A stretch of DNA of 64,000 nt from Candidatus Nomurabacteria bacterium RIFCSPLOWO2_01_FULL_42_17. Its GTDB lineage: Bacteria > Patescibacteriota > Minisyncoccia > Phycocordibacterales > UBA9973. The notes under the pieces were generated by a model. It was not told the DNA's origin. It did not search any database and saw nothing but the letters and a program-made list of their open reading frames with translations. Each line of letters starts with the position of its first letter. Position 1 is the stretch's first letter. A program made the translations under genes and the position numbers. This document shows, in pieces, positions 1 through 52,058 of this stretch. The stretch spans positions 233,771-297,770 of the forward strand of contig MFVE01000005.1 in the NCBI GenBank assembly GCA_001785985.1, in the 5' to 3' direction.

Positions 1-1096
1 CATGGTCGAGAGCTTTACCGATGTCGTGTACCAATGCTCCGGCTTTGGCGATGGCGACATCTGCGCCGAGCTCTTCAGCAAGCATTCCGGCAATGTGCGC
101 CATTTCTATAGAGTGTTGCAGGACGTTTTGTCCATAACTGGTGCGGAAATATAAGCGTCCGATAATAGCCACAATGCGCGGATCGAAATTTAATATTCCA
201 CATTCGTAGACTGCTTGTTCGCCTTTCTCTTTAATTATTTTATTTATTTCTTCTTTGGCTCTTTCCACCAGCTCTTCTATCTTGGCCGGCTGAATGCGTC
301 CGTCCAGAATTAAATTCTCTAGTGCCAAACGCGCCACTTGTCTCCTGATTGGATCAAAGGAAGAGATGACAATGGATCCAGGAGTGTCGTCAACAATTAG
401 CTCTACTCCGGAAGCTCGTTCAAAAGCGCGGATATTTCTGCCTTCTTTTCCTATTATTTTTCCCTTAATTTCATTGTTCGGGATAGAGACGACAGTGGTC
501 ATCAATTCGGATGCCGTGCTGGATGCCAGGCGTTGGATACTCGTCGCTAATATGTCTTTCGCTCTGCGGTCTAATTTTTCTTGGTTGCTATTTTCTAGCT
601 TTTGAATCCTAGTCAAGATATCTTCTTCGTATTTCTTTTCAATATCTTTCAAAAGTTCTTCTTTAGCGTCTCCCTCTGTCAATTTCGCCACTCTTTCTAA
701 TTCTACTCTTTTTTCTTCCTCTATTTTTACCACTTTTTCTTGGATCTTTTTTATTTCTTCTACTTTGTTTTTTATATTATCAACTTCTTTATTTATCTCC
801 ACTTGACGTGTATCCAGAAACTCGTCTTTTTTCACGAGTCTTAATTCTTTTTCTTTCCATTCGATATCTTTTTTCTTTTCTTCCTCTTTTAATTCTACTA
901 GTTTCTTTTCCGACGCTTTCTTTGCCTCGTCAGTAATTTTCTGCGCTTCTTCTTTGGCCGCTACCATCATCTGCTTGATATCAATTTCGATGGATCGTCT
1001 CTTGCCGAGGGCGACTATGACGCGCAAATAATATCCTACACCCACACCTAAAACAAGCGCTACTGCGCTTATCAGAATTATCATTAATGTACTCAT
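1..1096 (-). CDS. rny: Ribonuclease Y (RNase Y), 3' end truncated by window edge; start codon ATG at 1096
   Basis: Manual reverse-strand translation from 1096 gives an N-terminal TM helix (MSTLMIILISAVALVLGVGVGYYL), a coiled-coil, a KH motif (IIGKEGRNIRAFERASGVELIVDD) and the start of an HD domain (HSIEMAHIAGMLAEELGADV...HDIGK). No stop codon before position 1. Confidence 0.8.
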   Translation of the reverse strand, partial: MSTLMIILISAVALVLGVGVGYYLRVIVALGKRRSIEIDIKQMMVAAKEEAQKITDEAKKASEKKLVELKEEEKKKDIEWKEKELRLVKKDEFLDTRQVEINKEVDNIKNKVEEIKKIQEKVVKIEEEKRVELERVAKLTEGDAKEELLKDIEKKYEEDILTRIQKLENSNQEKLDRRAKDILATSIQRLASSTASELMTTVVSIPNNEIKGKIIGKEGRNIRAFERASGVELIVDDTPGSIVISSFDPIRRQVARLALENLILDGRIQPAKIEELVERAKEEINKIIKEKGEQAVYECGILNFDPRIVAIIGRLYFRTSYGQNVLQHSIEMAHIAGMLAEELGADVAIAKAGALVHDIGKALDH

Positions 1097-17877: not shown

Positions 17878-18384
17878 ATGCCAGAGAAGAAAGGAGAAAA
17901 AATTACTATTTATACTGATGGCGCGGCAAAGGGGAATCCTGGGAGTGCCGGCTGGGGCGCGGTAATTATTTCCCATAATGACAAGTTGAAAGTTGAAAGT
18001 GAAAAGTTGAAAGTGGTAGAGATAGGTGGGAAAGTAGATCATGCAACAAACAACCAAATGGAATTAACCGCGCCAATAGAAGCGCTGAAATATCTAAAGA
18101 ATACAGAGGTTAAACCTATGTATTTAGAGATAATTTCCGACTCTAAATATGTAATACTTGGGATTACCGAATGGATTTTCAACTGGCAGAAAAATAATTG
18201 GCGGAATGCTAATAAAAAACCGGTTTTAAACCGCGAACTCTGGGAAGAATTGTATTCGCTCGTGTCGGCATTGAAACCAAGATGGACCTATGTCAAAGGC
18301 CACAATGAAGACAAATACAACGATCGCGCGGACCTCATCGCCACCAGTTTCGCGGAAGGCGAACCAGTGGAACTTAAAAAATGA
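17878..18384 (+). CDS. rnhA: Ribonuclease HI
   Basis: ITIYTDGAAKGNPGSAGWGAVI, HATNNQMEL and GHNEDKYNDRAD. It has an in-frame GTTGAAAGT-type tandem repeat coding KLKVESEKLKVVE. Confidence 0.85.
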   Translation: MPEKKGEKITIYTDGAAKGNPGSAGWGAVIISHNDKLKVESEKLKVVEIGGKVDHATNNQMELTAPIEALKYLKNTEVKPMYLEIISDSKYVILGITEWIFNWQKNNWRNANKKPVLNRELWEELYSLVSALKPRWTYVKGHNEDKYNDRADLIATSFAEGEPVELKK

Positions 18385-39323: not shown

Positions 39324-39359
39324 ATAGCATATTGGTAACGGCCGTCACCAATATGCTAT
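39324..39359. promoter_or_regulatory. 36-bp near-perfect palindrome ATAGCATATTGGTAACGGCCGTCACCAATATGCTAT
   Basis: 17 of 18 positions pair. It shares ATAGCA...ACGGCCGT...TGCTAT with the palindrome at 39942. Confidence 0.6.
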
Positions 39360-39368
39360 CATGTATTC

Positions 39369-39929
39369 ATGAAGATAATTGATAAAGAATCTAATGCAGG
39401 GAAAATAATTCGTGCGCTAGGTTTTGGGATTGGGATAACAGTGGCTTTATCAAACAGAAGGACTAGTTATAAAATCACTAAATTATTGATCAAAGAAATC
39501 TTTGGATTAAATAAAAGACCGCCTAATATGGCTGGCTACTTTTTAAAACTAAGAAAACAAAAATTGATTGAGATCAAAAAAGACGGGAATCATCATAGAA
39601 TTTTTCTAACAGAAGGTGGCAGAGAGATCTTTTTACGATTCAATTATGAGGAATTAAAAATAAGAAATCCAAAAATCTGGGACCGAAATTTTCGAGTGAT
39701 TGTTTTTGATATTCCAGAAAGAAAAAGAAATGCACGAAATTCTTTAAGAGAAAAGATGAAGGAGTTAGGTTTTATCAAATTTAACGATAGTGTTTGGATT
39801 TATCCTTATCCATGTCAAAAAGAGATTGATTTCATCGCTAATTATTGGGGAATAGGCAAGTATGTGCATTTTATTTTGGCTCGAGATATTACGAATCGCG
39901 ATTTATTAGAAAAGTCCTTCAATTTATAG
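39369..39929 (+). CDS. PaaX-like regulator-type protein (N-terminal wHTH-like region plus C-terminal Cas2-fold-like domain)
   Basis: WDRNFRVIVFDIPERKRNARNSLREKMKELGFIKFNDSVWIYPY resembles the PaaX C-terminal / Cas2-like core. There is no CRISPR array nearby. Confidence 0.4.
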   Translation: MKIIDKESNAGKIIRALGFGIGITVALSNRRTSYKITKLLIKEIFGLNKRPPNMAGYFLKLRKQKLIEIKKDGNHHRIFLTEGGREIFLRFNYEELKIRNPKIWDRNFRVIVFDIPERKRNARNSLREKMKELGFIKFNDSVWIYPYPCQKEIDFIANYWGIGKYVHFILARDITNRDLLEKSFNL

Positions 39930-39941
39930 TTTTTTAGATAG

Positions 39942-39977
39942 ATAGCACAATAGAGACGGCCGTCTCTATTGTGCTAT
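39942..39977. promoter_or_regulatory. 36-bp perfect palindrome ATAGCACAATAGAGACGGCCGTCTCTATTGTGCTAT
   Basis: All 18 pairs complementary. It lies 12 nt after the stop of the 39369 gene. Confidence 0.6.
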
Positions 39978-47011: not shown

Positions 47012-48493
47012 ATGACGAGCAAAGACAAAAAATATTTCTATATCTCTACGACGATTCCTTATGTAAACGCAGATCCTCACATTGGTTTTGCGCTGGAGCT
47101 GGTGCAGTCTGATGTGATTGCGAGATATCAACGCCTCATCGGACGTGAAGTATTTTTTAGCACTGGCACAGATGAATACGGACAAAAGATCTGGGAAGCG
47201 AGCCAAAAAGAAGGAAAAAATGTTCAGGATTATGTAGACCATTATGCGCAAAAATTTATAGAGCTCAAAGAGATACTCAATTTATCTTATGATAATTTTA
47301 TCCGAACTACCAGCAAAGAACACAACCTAGCGGCTCAAGAATTTTGGCGTCTTTGCGAGAGGAAAGGTGATATTTATAAAAAAATATACCGAGGACTTTA
47401 TTGTATCGGGTGCGAGAGATTTATCACCGAGAAAGATTTGTTGGATGGATATTGTTCTCTGCATCCGGGCAAGAAACCCGAGATGGTGGAAGAGGAAAAT
47501 TATTTTTTCAGACTGACAAACTATAAAAAACAGCTTCTAGAATATCTTTCAGATGAAAAAGTCGTCTTTCCGGAGTGGAGGAGGAAAGAAGCCATTGATT
47601 TTGTAAATGAGGGCATGGAAGATTTCTCGATCTCGCGCAGTGCCGAACGTTTTTCTTGGGGTATACCGATACCGGGGGATGATACGCAGGTGATGTATGT
47701 CTGGTTCGGCGCTTTCATAAATTATCTCTCGACCTTGGGATGGCCCGGAAGAACCTCACCCCAGCCCTCTCCTTATAAAGGAGAGGGAGGAAGTAATTTT
47801 GAAAAATTCTGGCAAAGAGGGCAGACGGTCCAGATGGCCGGCAAAGACATGGTCAAATTTCAGTCTGTCATGTGGCAGGGGATGTTGATGTCCGCAGGTA
47901 TGCCTACCACTGGTACTATTGTTTATCATGGCTTTATCACTGGTGAAGGCGGAGTAAAAATTTCTAAATCTGTGGGGAATGGGATACACCCGAACGATAT
48001 TGTGTCCGAATATGGCACGGATGCCCTGCGATATTTTCTTTTGCGCGAAATTTCGACATTCGAAGATAGCCCCTTTACGATAGAACGATTTAAGGAAGCC
48101 TACAATGCGAATCTCGCGAATGGTTTGGGGAATTTGGTTTCACGTATTCTTACTCTTTCTGAAAAATATTTAGACAAGTGTCCAGAAATTGGAGAGGGAT
48201 CTGATTTTAGAGAATATTTTAGCTTTTTTGAAAAATTTGATCTGAAACAAGCAGCAGACTATGTCTGGAATGAGATAGGAGAGCTGGATAAATTTATTCA
48301 AGAAACAGAGCCGTTCAAGGTGGTGAAGGTAGATGCGCAAAAAGGGAAGGAAATAATAGCAAACATGGTCCTTCGTTTATATCAAATAGCTCAAATGCTG
48401 GATCCAATCATGCCGGAGACAAATATATTGCTAAAAAAATTAATTCGAGAAAACAAAAAACCGGAAGCCCCTTTATTCCCACGCAAAGATTAA
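47012..48493 (+). CDS. metG: Methionine--tRNA ligase (minimal form)
   Basis: The HIGH region (ADPHIGFA), a CxxC knuckle and VKISKS (KMSKS). It contains the in-frame GC-rich hairpin coding SPQPSPYKGEGGS. Confidence 0.88.
   Translation: MTSKDKKYFYISTTIPYVNADPHIGFALELVQSDVIARYQRLIGREVFFSTGTDEYGQKIWEASQKEGKNVQDYVDHYAQKFIELKEILNLSYDNFIRTTSKEHNLAAQEFWRLCERKGDIYKKIYRGLYCIGCERFITEKDLLDGYCSLHPGKKPEMVEEENYFFRLTNYKKQLLEYLSDEKVVFPEWRRKEAIDFVNEGMEDFSISRSAERFSWGIPIPGDDTQVMYVWFGAFINYLSTLGWPGRTSPQPSPYKGEGGSNFEKFWQRGQTVQMAGKDMVKFQSVMWQGMLMSAGMPTTGTIVYHGFITGEGGVKISKSVGNGIHPNDIVSEYGTDALRYFLLREISTFEDSPFTIERFKEAYNANLANGLGNLVSRILTLSEKYLDKCPEIGEGSDFREYFSFFEKFDLKQAADYVWNEIGELDKFIQETEPFKVVKVDAQKGKEIIANMVLRLYQIAQMLDPIMPETNILLKKLIRENKKPEAPLFPRKD
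47765..47787. repeat. GC-rich hairpin repeat, family C, copy 1 (CCCTCTCCTT-ATAA-AGGAGAGGG), in-frame inside metG
   Basis: The same hairpin occurs at 51975-51997 and, in a variant form, at 52034-52058. Confidence 0.7.
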
Positions 48494-48534
48494 ATAGCAA
48501 TACATAGGTTTAACCTATGTATTGCTTAAACTAT

Positions 48535-49113
48535 ATGTATAAGAATATTAAAATAATTGCGGAAGTAAAGACGCAATCGCCCTTTGGTTATAAATCAGAT
48601 AATACATGGAATGAATTATTTAAAGTTGCTAATAAAATAGGAGATATTATTTCTATTCATACAGATGATAGATGGGGTGGCTCGTTTGATTTAATTAAAA
48701 AAGCTAGATCATTGACTAAAAAGCCAATTTTAGCCAAAGGAATACACGAGAGGGATGAAGATATACAAAAAGCAATTGATGCTGGGGCAGATTGGGTGTT
48801 GGTCGTAGGTAGAATTCCTAGAGTTCATCTAGAAAAATGTTTGATTGAACCTTTAACCCTTCAGGAACTTAAAAATATTCCAGAAAGTTACAAAGCGGTA
48901 TGGAATAGTCGTGATTTATTGAATGGAAAATTTAAAAAAGAAAGTTTTGAAGAAGCCAGGGGTCTATTTAAAGGTTGGCTTTGCCAAGCAAGCAATATCA
49001 AGACAGTGGATGATATTAAAAAGGGAGCTGAAGCTGTTCTTGTCGGTACGTATTTATTGGATTTTGAAAAATCTGTGAGTTATACACAGATAAACTCTAA
49101 ATACATAGGTTAA
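48535..49113 (+). CDS. Indole-3-glycerol-phosphate synthase-like (TrpC-like, divergent and short) TIM-barrel protein
   Basis: IIAEVKTQSPFGY, ISIHTDDRWGGSFDLIKKAR and PILAKGI...AIDAGADWVLV resemble IGPS motifs (IIAE.K.ASPS.G, ISVLTD...F.GS). No other trp genes are in the window. The start is moved to MYKNIKII. Confidence 0.45.
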   Translation: MYKNIKIIAEVKTQSPFGYKSDNTWNELFKVANKIGDIISIHTDDRWGGSFDLIKKARSLTKKPILAKGIHERDEDIQKAIDAGADWVLVVGRIPRVHLEKCLIEPLTLQELKNIPESYKAVWNSRDLLNGKFKKESFEEARGLFKGWLCQASNIKTVDDIKKGAEAVLVGTYLLDFEKSVSYTQINSKYIG

Positions 49114-49141
49114 ACCTATGTATTTATGTTATCATATACTT

Positions 49142-49816
49142 ATGAATAGAAAAGTGCCATTTGTGGAAGGGGAATATTATCATGTATACAATCGCGGGGT
49201 TGATAAACGGGTTATTTTTCAAGATGTTGTAGATTATAAAAGATTAATTTTGCTATTGAAAATATTAAATACTACACAAAATATAATTGTGCGCGATCTT
49301 TTTAAAAATAAAACTTATGAAGAAATTATTTCTGAAAAAATAGCTGATCCTATTGTGGCAATAGGTGCGTATTGCTTAATGCCGAATCATTTTCATATAT
49401 TAATTACCCCATTGGTTGAAAAGGGTGTAGAAAAATATATGCAAAAAATACAAACAGCCTATACAATGTATTTTAATAATAAAAATGAAAGATCTGGGGC
49501 TTTATTGCAGGGGACATTTAAGTCTCAACATTTAGATACTGATGAATATTTGAAATATATTTATTCATACATACATTTAAACCCAGCAAAATTGAAAGAT
49601 AAAGACTGGAAGGAAAAAGGGCCCAGAGATTTTCAATCTTTGAAAGAATTTGTGTTGAGCTATAAATATTCAAGTATAGGGGAGTATTTAAAAGATGATT
49701 TCGTTATTATAAATAATACTCCTTTCCCGACTTACATGGAAGATTATAAATCCAAAGAGGAATATTTTAAGATGATGGTCGATGATTGGCTTAGATACCA
49801 AAATACAGAGGTTTAA
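49142..49816 (+). CDS. REP-associated tyrosine transposase (RAYT) / IS200-like Y1 HUH transposase
   Basis: GEYYHVYNRG, the HuH motif MPNHFHILI and the catalytic Tyr motif YIYSYIHLNPA. The start is moved to MNRKVPF. Confidence 0.8.
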   Translation: MNRKVPFVEGEYYHVYNRGVDKRVIFQDVVDYKRLILLLKILNTTQNIIVRDLFKNKTYEEIISEKIADPIVAIGAYCLMPNHFHILITPLVEKGVEKYMQKIQTAYTMYFNNKNERSGALLQGTFKSQHLDTDEYLKYIYSYIHLNPAKLKDKDWKEKGPRDFQSLKEFVLSYKYSSIGEYLKDDFVIINNTPFPTYMEDYKSKEEYFKMMVDDWLRYQNTEV

Positions 49817-49833
49817 CCTATGTATTTCAATTT

Positions 49834-50748
49834 ATGTCCCCTAAATACATAGACATCCATAGCCACGTGAATTTTAAAGCTTTTGATGCAGATCGAGACG
49901 AGGTAATTAAGCGTGCTTTAGAAAACGATACTTGGGTGATAAATGTTGGCACGCAGGTGGATACCTCTAAAAAGGCCGTTGAGATGGCGCATCAATACGA
50001 GGAGGGTGTGTATGCGATTATCGGACTTCATCCGATCCATACGGGAGTTTCTTTTCACGATGAAAAAGAATTAGGCCCCGCCTTCGCTAAAGCTTCGGAC
50101 GGGCAAGGGAGGGAGGAAGGGTTCACTTCCCGCGGAGAAGTTTTTGATAAAGAATCTTACAGAGAACTTTTGAAAAATCCTAAGACAAATAAAAAAATAG
50201 TTGGAATAGGGGAGTGTGGTCTTGATTATTATAGATGTACACCGGAATCAGTCGAAAAACAGAAAAAAGATTTTATTGCGCAGATAGAACTGGCAAATGA
50301 ATTCAATAAACCTCTCATGCTTCACATTCGCAACAATTCGGAAAAGATCCACCCCGACTTGAAAGTCACCCCTCAAGAGGGGAATAATGCGTATGTTGAT
50401 GCGTTAGAAATTTTAAAGAAACATGCAAAGGTCAAAGGCAATGTGCATTTTTTTGCTGGCAGGTGGGAAGAGGCGAAAGCGTTTCTGGATTTCGGCTTCG
50501 CTCTTTCTTTCACTGGCGTTATCACATTTACAAATGATTATAATGAGATTATCAAAAATACTCCCCTCGATATGATCATGTCTGAGACCGATTCTCCATA
50601 TGTTACGCCTGCTCCTTATAGAGGCAAGAGGAACGAGCCATCTTATGTAAAGGAAGTGGTCAAAAAAATCGCTGAAGTCAAAAATCTACCTGAAAACGAG
50701 GTGGCGCAGGCCATAATTGCCAATGCAAAACGCATCTTTACTTTATAA
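49834..50748 (+). CDS. tatD: TatD-family metal-dependent DNase/hydrolase
   Basis: IDIHSHV, GECGLDYY, LHIRN and SETDSPY. It contains an extra ~35-aa GC-rich insert (GPAFAKASDGQGREEGFTSRGEVF). Confidence 0.8.
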   Translation: MSPKYIDIHSHVNFKAFDADRDEVIKRALENDTWVINVGTQVDTSKKAVEMAHQYEEGVYAIIGLHPIHTGVSFHDEKELGPAFAKASDGQGREEGFTSRGEVFDKESYRELLKNPKTNKKIVGIGECGLDYYRCTPESVEKQKKDFIAQIELANEFNKPLMLHIRNNSEKIHPDLKVTPQEGNNAYVDALEILKKHAKVKGNVHFFAGRWEEAKAFLDFGFALSFTGVITFTNDYNEIIKNTPLDMIMSETDSPYVTPAPYRGKRNEPSYVKEVVKKIAEVKNLPENEVAQAIIANAKRIFTL

Positions 50749-51974: not shown

Positions 51975-52058
51975 CCCTCTCCTTAATAAGGAGAGGGTTG
52001 GGGTGAGGTGAATTAATTAAGAACCGCCCCTCATTCCCCTCCTTGTTAAGGAGGGGAG
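51975..52058. terminator. Two family-C GC-rich hairpins in the convergent rpsR/efp intergenic region
   Basis: ccctctcctt-aataa-ggagaggg (51975-51997) and ttcccctcctt-gtt-aaggaggggagg (52034-52058). Neither has a clear U-tract. Confidence 0.45.

Follow-up and report, generated by a model that had tools for sequence, protein, structure and literature searches.

Organization of the locus

The 64,000-nt stretch of DNA from Candidatus Nomurabacteria bacterium RIFCSPLOWO2_01_FULL_42_17 analysed here (the window) contains a gene for a Y1 HUH endonuclease that resembles the repetitive extragenic palindrome (REP)-associated tyrosine transposases (RAYTs, or TnpA-REP proteins). Directly upstream lies a gene for a short (beta-alpha)8 enzyme that resembles indole-3-glycerol-phosphate synthase (IGPS), and copies of one palindrome, none assigned to a strand, stand before, between and after the two genes. 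The first palindrome (P1, 48496..48526, AGCAATACATAGGTT-T-AACCTATGTATTGCT) begins 3 nt past the stop codon of the MetRS gene and is followed by the IGPS-like gene (48535..49113, plus strand, 192 aa). The last 6 codons and the stop codon of this gene are encoded by the second palindrome (P2, 49098..49126, TAAATACATAGGTT-A-AACCTATGTATTTA), the TAA (49111-49113) lying in the P2 loop, 28 nt ahead of the RAYT ATG. The RAYT gene (49142..49816, plus strand, 224 aa) is intact and ends within the third palindrome (P3, 49801..49827, AAATACAGAGGTT-T-AACCTATGTATTT), whose loop contains the RAYT stop codon, TAA (49814-49816); P3 has one G/A stem mismatch and ends 6 nt before the ATG of the TatD gene.

A preliminary description, made from the sequence alone, had reported three palindromes around the two genes, one of them overlapping the stop of the upstream gene near the transposase start, and had found no other tryptophan genes nearby. 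All of the features that it described lie where it had placed them, the palindromic cores being at 48500, 49101 and 49803, and no tryptophan genes occur among the genes within ∼5 kb of the locus, which encode an AI-2E transporter, MetRS, TatD, S6, SSB and S18.

The Y1 HUH endonuclease

The identification of the 49142-49816 open reading frame (ORF) as a RAYT-type Y1 HUH protein, already proposed in the preliminary description, was upheld by profile, motif and fold. The translation scored above the gathering cutoff of Pfam Y1_Tnp (PF01797; 35.7 versus 23 bits, E value of 1.1e-8) and contains the sequences GEYYHVYNRG, NHFHILI and YIHLNPA. The HUH motif is N82-H83-F84-H85, and the catalytic tyrosine is Y143 in YIHLNP; N82, H83, H85 and Y143 are invariant, and F84 nearly so, across 47 homologs. 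A third motif reads LLQG (family consensus, LFQG). The Y motif is of the YxxxNP type, which is the class 2 criterion of Quentin et al. (Y---NP, not Y--NQ), and the IS200 subclass is therefore excluded. The best NCBIfam match was REP_Tyr_transpos (NF047646), at 41.6 bits, below its equivalog cutoff of 80.

Sequence searches of the PDB with the protein and with the family profile returned no TnpA, only weak bromodomain noise, and a fold search was therefore needed. With the AlphaFold (AF2) model (pLDDT of 89), the top Foldseek matches were 4ER8, 2A6O, 2VJV and 2XM3. The best match among solved folds was 4ER8, E. coli TnpA-REP with a REP hairpin (E value of 1e-6; TM score of 0.67, normalised to the target), and the TnpA proteins of IS608 and ISDra2 ranked after it. 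The C-terminal 75 aa are helical in the model, and no Pfam match to a helix-turn-helix (HTH)-like C-terminal domain (Bac_DnaA_C, HTH_23 or HTH_28) was obtained at E values up to 1. The family is large: at least 7,800 of the 8,000 candidates scored, all cluster representatives at 90% identity, were RAYT homologs, and the named ones belong to Patescibacteria, some labelled "RayT" by JGI and others "transposase" by automatic pipelines.

Sequence, copies and folding of the palindrome

The palindrome has the consensus ATACA[T/G]AGGTT-N-AACCTATGTAT. A search of the window with ATACATAGGTTNAACCTATGTAT, allowing up to 3 mismatches, found four matches, at 48500-48522 and 49101-49123 (both with 0 mismatches) and at 49803-49825 and 18101-18123 (1 mismatch each), compared with none in 100 dinucleotide-preserving shuffles of the window. 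The 11-nt core AGGTTNAACCT likewise occurs in the window only at these four palindromes, against 0.07 expected. The preliminary description had missed the copy at 18101 (18100..18124, AATACAGAGGTT-A-AACCTATGTATT), which has the same G/A mismatch as P3 and lies in frame within the RNase HI gene (rnhA, 17878-18384), so that the palindrome is not confined to the locus. The expectation that REP-like palindromes would be numerous was nevertheless not borne out within the window, where one copy lies outside the locus in 64 kb.

When extended into their flanks, the palindromes of the locus form stems of 12 to 15 bp (48496-48526, 49098-49126 and 49801-49827). The predicted folding energies of the four copies as single-stranded DNA are −13.3, −10.8, −7.6 and −6.7 kcal/mol (z-scores between −5 and −7 relative to shuffled controls); the most stable is the P1 hairpin (−13.3 kcal/mol, z-score of −6.7). 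P2 and P1 are closely matched, since 49100-49124 is the exact reverse complement of 48499-48523 (25 nt, 100% complementary), and both carry T-A in place of the G/A found at that stem position in P3 and in the palindromes of relatives. The 5' sequences of the stems (AGCAATACA, CTAAATACA and CAAAATACA) contain no GTAG or GTGG and thus lack the 5' GT[AG]G guide tag, which was seen only in occasional members of the RAYT family, e.g., at locus L042 (comparison loci are given L-numbers). The centre nucleotide (T or A) was considered as a mark of orientation and rejected: the rnhA copy combines a centre A with the G/A arm asymmetry of P3, and the centre of P3 is T.

An Rfam scan of 48300-50000 at E values up to 10 gave only chance-level matches, far below gathering scores, and a full-text literature search for the palindrome core strings returned only unrelated papers, e.g., on the CueR promoter. 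Promoter-like sites at the locus were no commoner than in shuffled sequence. A scan for intrinsic terminators flagged P1 and P2 on the minus strand alone, whereas the local genes are all on the plus strand, and a reading of the palindromes as intrinsic terminators was rejected on this ground.

Pairing of gene and palindrome across the family

The association of the palindrome with the RAYT gene extends well beyond the window. In four related metagenomic contigs (L003-L006) the same palindrome lies on both sides of the orthologous RAYT gene, and the equivalent of P1 occupies the same place in these contigs and in L029. RAYT C termini encoded by the palindrome (..NTEV* or ..FTEV*), as at P3, were found in L003-L006 and in L013. 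Species-representative genomes, among which the source organism's own genome apparently is not included, were scanned with the 21-nt core; this gave 32 loci, nearly all from Patescibacteria, with 1 to 4 perfect copies per metagenome-assembled genome (MAG). Three of the 32 (L011-L013) adjoin RAYT homologs of only 37 to 46% identity that are flanked by the same core. At L013 the palindrome precedes the RAYT gene, encodes its C terminus (..FTEV*) and is also present in frame inside the gene.

A wider comparison was made with 80 metagenomic loci of the family, 72 of which had both flanks, by searching the 130 nt upstream of the gene and the region of its stop codon for at least 12 identical nucleotides. 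Such a shared sequence was present at 59 of the 72 loci and in 3 of 113 displaced control windows. It is a palindrome that differs between lineages (e.g., TGAGCAAGGACaGTCCTTGCTCA, ACTTGGAGGttcttCCTCCAAGT and TGTCCTAGACTaAGTCTAGGACA), and some lineages have inverted palindrome doublets that resemble REPINs. The palindrome is centred at a median of 33 nt before the start codon on the upstream side and 11 nt after the stop codon on the downstream side, where it overlaps the end of the ORF at 28 of 49 loci. Within MAGs, dispersed copies share the stem variant of the RAYT-flanking copy (4/4 in CAZCYM and 3/3 in CAZCIQ); most of them lie 0 to 60 nt from gene ends, and several are followed by T runs.

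Judged from these sequence comparisons, the palindromes are likely to be cognate flanking repeats of the RAYT gene, here, in the syntenic relatives and across the family, and the proposal that they are RAYT-associated repeats has held at all three levels. REPtrons are defined by just this pattern, in which every gene is paired with a palindrome of its own; the family departs from the canonical form in having no GT[AG]G tag and a low copy number.

Vertical inheritance of the RAYT gene

The four related contigs share the gene order MetRS, palindrome, RAYT, palindrome, TatD, S6, SSB, S18, and their RAYT gene, in the same slot, is 83% identical to that of the window, a value close to those of the neighbouring MetRS (81%) and TatD (74%) genes. 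The GC content of the RAYT gene is below that of the rest of the locus at 40/40 homolog loci, including the syntenic relatives (by a median of 8.4 GC points). The low GC thus characterises the family and does not indicate recent arrival, and the idea that the composition of the RAYT gene marks it as recently acquired was rejected. The gene is single copy in the window, vertically inherited, syntenic and of the domesticated type.

The preliminary description had called the gene "IS200-like," and an active insertion sequence (IS) of the IS200/IS605 type, with the palindromes as left-end (LE) and right-end (RE) hairpins and the IGPS-like gene as cargo, would indeed account for a Y1_Tnp domain between flanking hairpins, for a GC content low relative to the flanks and for the variation in RAYT gene neighbours between distant lineages. 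We nevertheless consider it very unlikely. The Y motif is not the Y[IV]ENQ of TnpA-IS200 (PMC6006769 table 1), both ends carry the same palindrome rather than distinct LE and RE sequences, and no TnpB-sized ORF adjoins the one gene copy in the window. More generally, the usual marks of IS200/IS605 elements (multiple near-identical copies, distinct LE and RE hairpins and often tnpB) were not found in the 64 kb. The same slot is moreover filled in the relatives, where divergence equals that of the flanking housekeeping genes, and the low GC is family wide.

The IGPS-like enzyme

The protein encoded at 48535-49113 matched Pfam IGPS (PF00218) at 38 bits (E value of 1.4e-9; cutoff of 27), with only residues 3 to 99, the N-terminal half, in the alignment. 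A profile of its family, however, aligned over the whole barrel of Thermotoga maritima IGPS (1I4N; E value of 1.7e-15). Six residues, E10, K12, K68, E105, N124 and S153, are invariant in 38 family members and align with the IIAEFK, PILAKD, LVEV, NTRDL and ESGI positions of 1I4N. They are the equivalents of E51, K53, K110, E159, N180 and S211 (S. solfataricus numbering), which we take to be the catalytic and binding residues of IGPS. The equivalent of E210 is Ala152. The N-terminal helical extension (∼40 aa), which covers the substrate in IGPS, is absent, and the protein starts at the equivalent of residue 39 of 1I4N. In agreement with this, the AF2 model (pLDDT of 93) has eight strands and begins with strand 1, and its best fold matches in the PDB are IGPS.

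The preliminary description had regarded the gene as a shortened TrpC. It is not a decayed TrpC, because it fails every TrpC equivalog cutoff: all 14 of 14 NCBIfam TrpC models scored far below their cutoffs, the best at 50.6 bits versus 258. It belongs instead to a highly conserved enzyme family that is native to Patescibacteria and comprises more than 1,000 proteins with a length of ∼182 aa and an identity of ∼70%; the best 120 matches are 66 to 82% identical to the window protein, and the named members among the matches listed belong to Patescibacteria. The possibility, raised at the outset, that the gene belongs to a different TIM-barrel family native to the lineage thus proved partly correct. 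The protein is probably not a TrpC of the tryptophan pathway, and members of this short family should be neither named TrpC in annotation nor counted as evidence for tryptophan synthesis.

Five homologs elsewhere have unrelated neighbour genes and a GC content within 2 points of that of the host; at these five loci there are no flanking palindromes, shared flank sequences or adjacent trp genes. The family as a whole was accordingly rejected as a palindrome-bounded cassette.

Some genes of aromatic metabolism were seen in the comparison loci. A chorismate mutase (CM_2) gene directly follows one of the IGPS-like homologs (L121 4563-4844), another homolog has a dehydroquinate synthase gene ∼3.8 kb upstream (L123 1-216), and a dehydroquinase II gene is present in RAYT locus L003 (1760-2332), which has no IGPS-like gene. 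These genes hint that a residual aromatic-compound pathway may exist in these genomes.

Insertion of a gene at the palindrome

The IGPS-like gene is absent from the syntenic relatives. Alignment to L003 and L004 delimits the window-specific segment to 48524-49099 and identifies the palindrome as the only duplicated sequence, the single upstream palindrome of the relatives aligning to both P1 and P2. The net addition is therefore one gene plus one palindrome copy. The inserted gene has a GC content of 33.0% and a GC content at third codon positions (GC3) of 23%, compared with a GC3 of ∼41% in the MetRS, TatD and rnhA genes. In L029, the slot between MetRS and TatD holds the palindrome and then an unrelated Lys/Glu-rich ORF of 180 aa (180-722, minus strand) that has no Pfam match, and the slot contains no RAYT gene.

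The simplest reading is that the IGPS-like gene was acquired horizontally by recombination at the palindrome. The preliminary description had it as a passenger captured within a REP/RAYT unit; what the comparison supports is an insertion at a palindrome, bounded exactly by palindrome copies and of foreign composition, rather than capture within a transposon. The gene is best read as one captured at a REP and not as the cargo of an insertion sequence. The HUH enzyme may have catalysed the insertion.

It could be argued instead that the MetRS-TatD slot originally held the IGPS-like gene and that the relatives lost it when the flanking palindromes recombined. Deletion and rearrangement between repeats are common, P1 and P2 form perfect 25-nt inverted repeats around the gene, and only two relative lineages are comparable. 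Inverted repeats favour inversion over deletion, however, and the gene differs in GC3 from the genes that flank it (23% versus 41%), whereas homologs elsewhere match their hosts. The closest homolog is moreover only 76 to 82% identical and is found in unrelated contexts, and L029 has an unrelated ORF in the slot. We therefore regard ancestral presence as improbable and prefer capture at the palindrome.

Palindromes within coding sequences

The rnhA copy (18100-18124) encodes NTEVKPMYL in a loop of RNase HI. This loop is hypervariable in orthologs whose remaining sequence is 70 to 85% identical, and with the palindrome it is no longer than in orthologs without it. Orthologs in the same HIT-RecJ-RnhA-ComEC context have a different in-frame palindrome in the same loop in each lineage: TACACAGGGttcCCCTGTG (L124 2822-2842), which resembles the RAYT-flanking palindromes of L040, L041 and L099; TTACAAAGGGTaACCCTTTG (L125 6182-6204), which resembles that of L086; AAATACACAGGCaacGCCTGTGTATTT (L126 2015-2041); and CCTCCCCCTACaGTAGGGGGAGG (L127 1730-1752), which belongs to another palindrome family. 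The loop of L128 has no palindrome. In the five lineages with a palindrome (the window and L124-L127), sequence changes are compensated on both arms, which suggests that the loop is a recurrent target site or that its copies are held to the palindrome type of the genome in which they lie.

Other genes also carry the palindrome in frame. TACA[G/T]AGGTT-N-AACCT[A/C]TGTA is present in miaA (tRNA isopentenyltransferase, Pfam IPPT) of two MAGs (L028 1968-1988 and L034 2297-2317), and in L014 a GT4 glycosyltransferase gene has the core of the window palindrome close to its 3' end. Intragenic REPs are already known, many of them in replication and repair genes (PMC3733652), as are REP insertions inside tnpA-REP genes (PMC6006769). 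The recurrence at one rnhA loop with a lineage-specific sequence is the less expected part.

Further palindromes were noted in the window and in comparison loci. In L127, a diverged RAYT-like gene (2072-2746; 36% identical over 176 aa) lies between rnhA and a comEC-like gene and is flanked by its own palindrome, AATTGGTCAACCTGcCAGGTTGACCAATT (2017-2047 and 2724-2752), the upstream copy of which overlaps the end of rnhA. Three copies (47766-47786, 51976-51996 and 52036-52056) of a second palindrome family, CCTCTCCTT-NNN-AAGGAGAGG, were found in the window versus 0.03 expected, one in frame in the MetRS gene (loop PSPYKGEGG) and two just after rpsR; no cognate gene for it was seen in the window. 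Related CCTCCCCCTA..TAGGGGGAGG copies occur in the rnhA loop of L127 (1730-1752) and within the range of the recJ gene in L128 (1042-1063). Two related 36-nt palindromes (ATAGCA..GACGGCCGTC..TGCTAT; 39324-39359 and 39942-39977) bracket an ORF of 186 aa with a PaaX_M (Cas2-like) domain (39369-39929) and may be operators or part of another repeat-flanked unit. The N-terminal KYID of TatD (49843-49854) is encoded by AAATACATAGAC, which matches the left palindrome arm AAATACATAGGT at 10/12 positions; the same TatD codons are present in L003 and L029, and the likeness may be a coincidence or a relic half-site. A scan of viral contigs (IMG/VR) gave a single match, L039 1515-1535 (IMGVR_UViG_3300026484_000087), in which a putative viral contig of 206 kb carries one extended copy (CATATAGTACATAGGTTAAACCTATGTACTATATG) between convergent ORFs; there is no RAYT gene within the surrounding 3 kb, and the scan was uninformative.

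The in-frame copies bear on a further explanation, in which the palindromes would serve to control expression of the RAYT-like gene and its neighbours and would have no role in mobility, either as the operator of an autoregulating domesticated protein or as a hairpin that stabilises, attenuates or terminates mRNA, with the IGPS-like gene having arrived by unrelated recombination. Such a role would suit the typical placement of the upstream copy, at the distance of a promoter or operator from the start codon, and of the downstream copy at the stop codon, as well as the location of most dispersed copies near gene ends, several with T runs, and the similar bracketing of the PaaX_M gene by 36-nt palindromes. 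Copies in frame within rnhA, miaA, the glycosyltransferase gene and a RAYT gene, however, fit neither an operator nor a terminator. Termination at P3 would silence TatD, which starts 6 nt beyond it, and the terminator calls fall on the minus strand only, opposite to all local genes. Expression control would also leave aside the retention of all catalytic residues by the RAYT enzyme and a presence/absence difference bounded exactly by palindromes. On balance, expression control as the whole explanation is unlikely.

Relation to known systems

Work on REP/RAYT systems has been confined almost entirely to Proteobacteria and a small number of other phyla, and the function of these systems is still debated. 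Literature searches combining RAYT with Patescibacteria or the candidate phyla radiation (CPR) found no account of such a system, only a passing mention of KEGG K07491 in an archaeal genome paper. RAYT/TnpA-REP genes with flanking REP sequences (REPtrons) are the subject of work by Nunvar (2010), Bertels and Rainey (2011), Ton-Hoang/Messing (2012) and Quentin et al. 2018 (PMC6006769). As in the REPtron of E. coli TnpA-REP, which is also the best structural match (PDB 4ER8), the window has a single-copy Y1 HUH protein with a Yxxx-NP motif, whose gene is flanked by a short, lineage-specific hairpin palindrome, with more copies dispersed near gene ends, and which is inherited vertically in conserved synteny. 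Unlike in REPtrons, the palindromes are AT rich, have no 5' GT[AG]G and number a handful per genome rather than tens to hundreds, and the protein, whose 224 aa include a helical C-terminal part of 75 aa, is longer and falls below the NCBIfam RAYT cutoff. The surveys consulted do not extend to Patescibacteria, the phylum of the host.

In its motif set and length, compared by inspection and not with the authors' hidden Markov models, the window RAYT is similar to subclass 2.1, the TIRYT group, which we take to be Bertels group 1. This subclass is characterised by NH[YF]H, FQ and Y[IV]HLNP and a length of ∼238 aa and is the TIRYT group of Di Nocera et al. 2013 (PMC6006769 table 1, PMC3733652). 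The flanking repeats of the corresponding "TIRtrons" can likewise overlap the 5' or 3' end of the gene and have low to moderate copy numbers (PMC3733652). Unlike TIRYTs, the window RAYT has no detected C-terminal HTH-like domain, and its repeats lack GGGG[AT][CG]A[CG]; each flank is an AT-rich palindrome and not one arm of a terminal inverted repeat (TIR).

The in-frame copies resemble intragenic REPs and the Rickettsia palindromic elements (RPE) in their occurrence in surface loops of housekeeping proteins, including those of replication and repair, here rnhA (PMC3733652), and the RAYT gene of L013 with its internal copy is comparable to REP insertions in subclass 2.4 tnpA-REP genes (PMC6006769). 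They differ from intragenic REPs and RPE in that the unit is 21 to 27 nt (7 to 9 codons), the host loop is not lengthened and the same rnhA loop holds lineage-specific palindromes.

With the TnpA proteins of IS200/IS605 elements (IS608 and ISDra2), which are the second-best structural matches, the window RAYT shares the HUH/Y1 fold and, by analogy, a predicted recognition of subterminal DNA hairpins. It differs from them in the Y motif, in not being multicopy, in having no adjacent TnpB-sized ORF, in its identical ends and in its syntenic position. The IGPS-like protein, finally, has the (beta-alpha)8 fold of TrpC/IGPS (PDB 1I4N and 1A53), its top matches in both sequence and fold, with equivalents of all six catalytic/binding residues; it departs from TrpC in the missing N-terminal extension of ∼40 aa, shortened loops, a length of 182 to 192 aa versus ∼250 and the replacement of E210 by Ala.

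A proposed REPtron-like unit with a captured gene

We propose, with a probability of roughly 70%, that a REPtron-like unit from a large family of Patescibacterial RAYTs occupies the locus and that a gene was captured at one of its palindromes. Such a unit would consist of a Y1 HUH endonuclease of the RAYT/TnpA-REP class and its cognate 21- to 27-nt palindromes, one centred ∼30 nt upstream of the RAYT start codon and the other overlapping the stop codon. If it works as E. coli TnpA-REP and the TnpA of IS608 do, the enzyme would bind the hairpin that the palindrome forms in single-stranded DNA, cut and rejoin at the foot of the hairpin and thereby seed or maintain the few dispersed copies. The IGPS-like gene would have been acquired horizontally at the upstream palindrome already resident there and would have brought one additional palindrome copy with it, through either strand transfer by the HUH enzyme from one hairpin to another or recombination of palindromes with each other. 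Transposition chemistry, hairpin recognition, cleavage and strand transfer by the RAYT are thus predicted from its characterised relatives.

Several observations weigh against this proposal. First, the link between enzyme and palindrome is purely comparative. Second, copies are few, with one dispersed copy in 64 kb and 1 to 4 perfect copies per MAG, and classical REPs are far commoner; the canonical 5' GT[AG]G guide tetranucleotide is also absent. Third, the protein misses the NCBIfam RAYT equivalog cutoff (41.6 versus 80 bits), and its NHFH, FQ and YIHLNP motifs are those of subclass 2.1, for which no REPs have been reported (PMC6006769). Fourth, the main role of palindromes that adjoin start and stop codons could be to control expression. 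Finally, P1 and P2 share T-A where P3 and the relatives have G/A, so that a simple model of cutting in the middle of the palindrome fails unless the sequence was corrected later.

Implications

The locus represents a known kind of system, REP/RAYT, in a bacterial group new to it, where it takes an unusual form with few copies. In a very large branch of the RAYT family from Patescibacteria (at least 7,800 cluster representatives), gene and palindrome are strictly paired, and such pairing with few, noncanonical palindromes, by proteins with the motifs of a subclass reported without REPs, calls for a wider definition of RAYT recognition. The system is compact and of low copy number, so that every palindrome copy can be tracked. 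A foreign gene placed precisely between two palindrome copies offers a concrete case in which REP-associated acquisition of genes by organisms with tiny genomes can be tested, and the lineage-specific palindromes of the rnhA loop provide a natural experiment on the means by which REP copies stay matched to their enzyme.

A more far-reaching idea, which we regard as doubtful at present, is that in Patescibacteria the palindrome serves as an integron-like site at which a gene and one palindrome copy are inserted or exchanged and that, in addition, in-frame copies in housekeeping genes are kept matched to the genome's palindrome type through replacement driven by the RAYT. Among three related lineages, the MetRS-TatD slot contains nothing extra in one, the IGPS-like gene in another and an unrelated ORF of 180 aa in the third, and RAYT-driven replacement, if it occurs, would explain why one rnhA loop has a different, fully compensated palindrome in each lineage. 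The matched in-frame copies would then be those of rnhA and miaA and, for the second palindrome family, those of metG and rnhA and a site inside recJ. If this is correct, the pair of RAYT and palindrome in Patescibacteria would be more than a selfish element or an idle relic.

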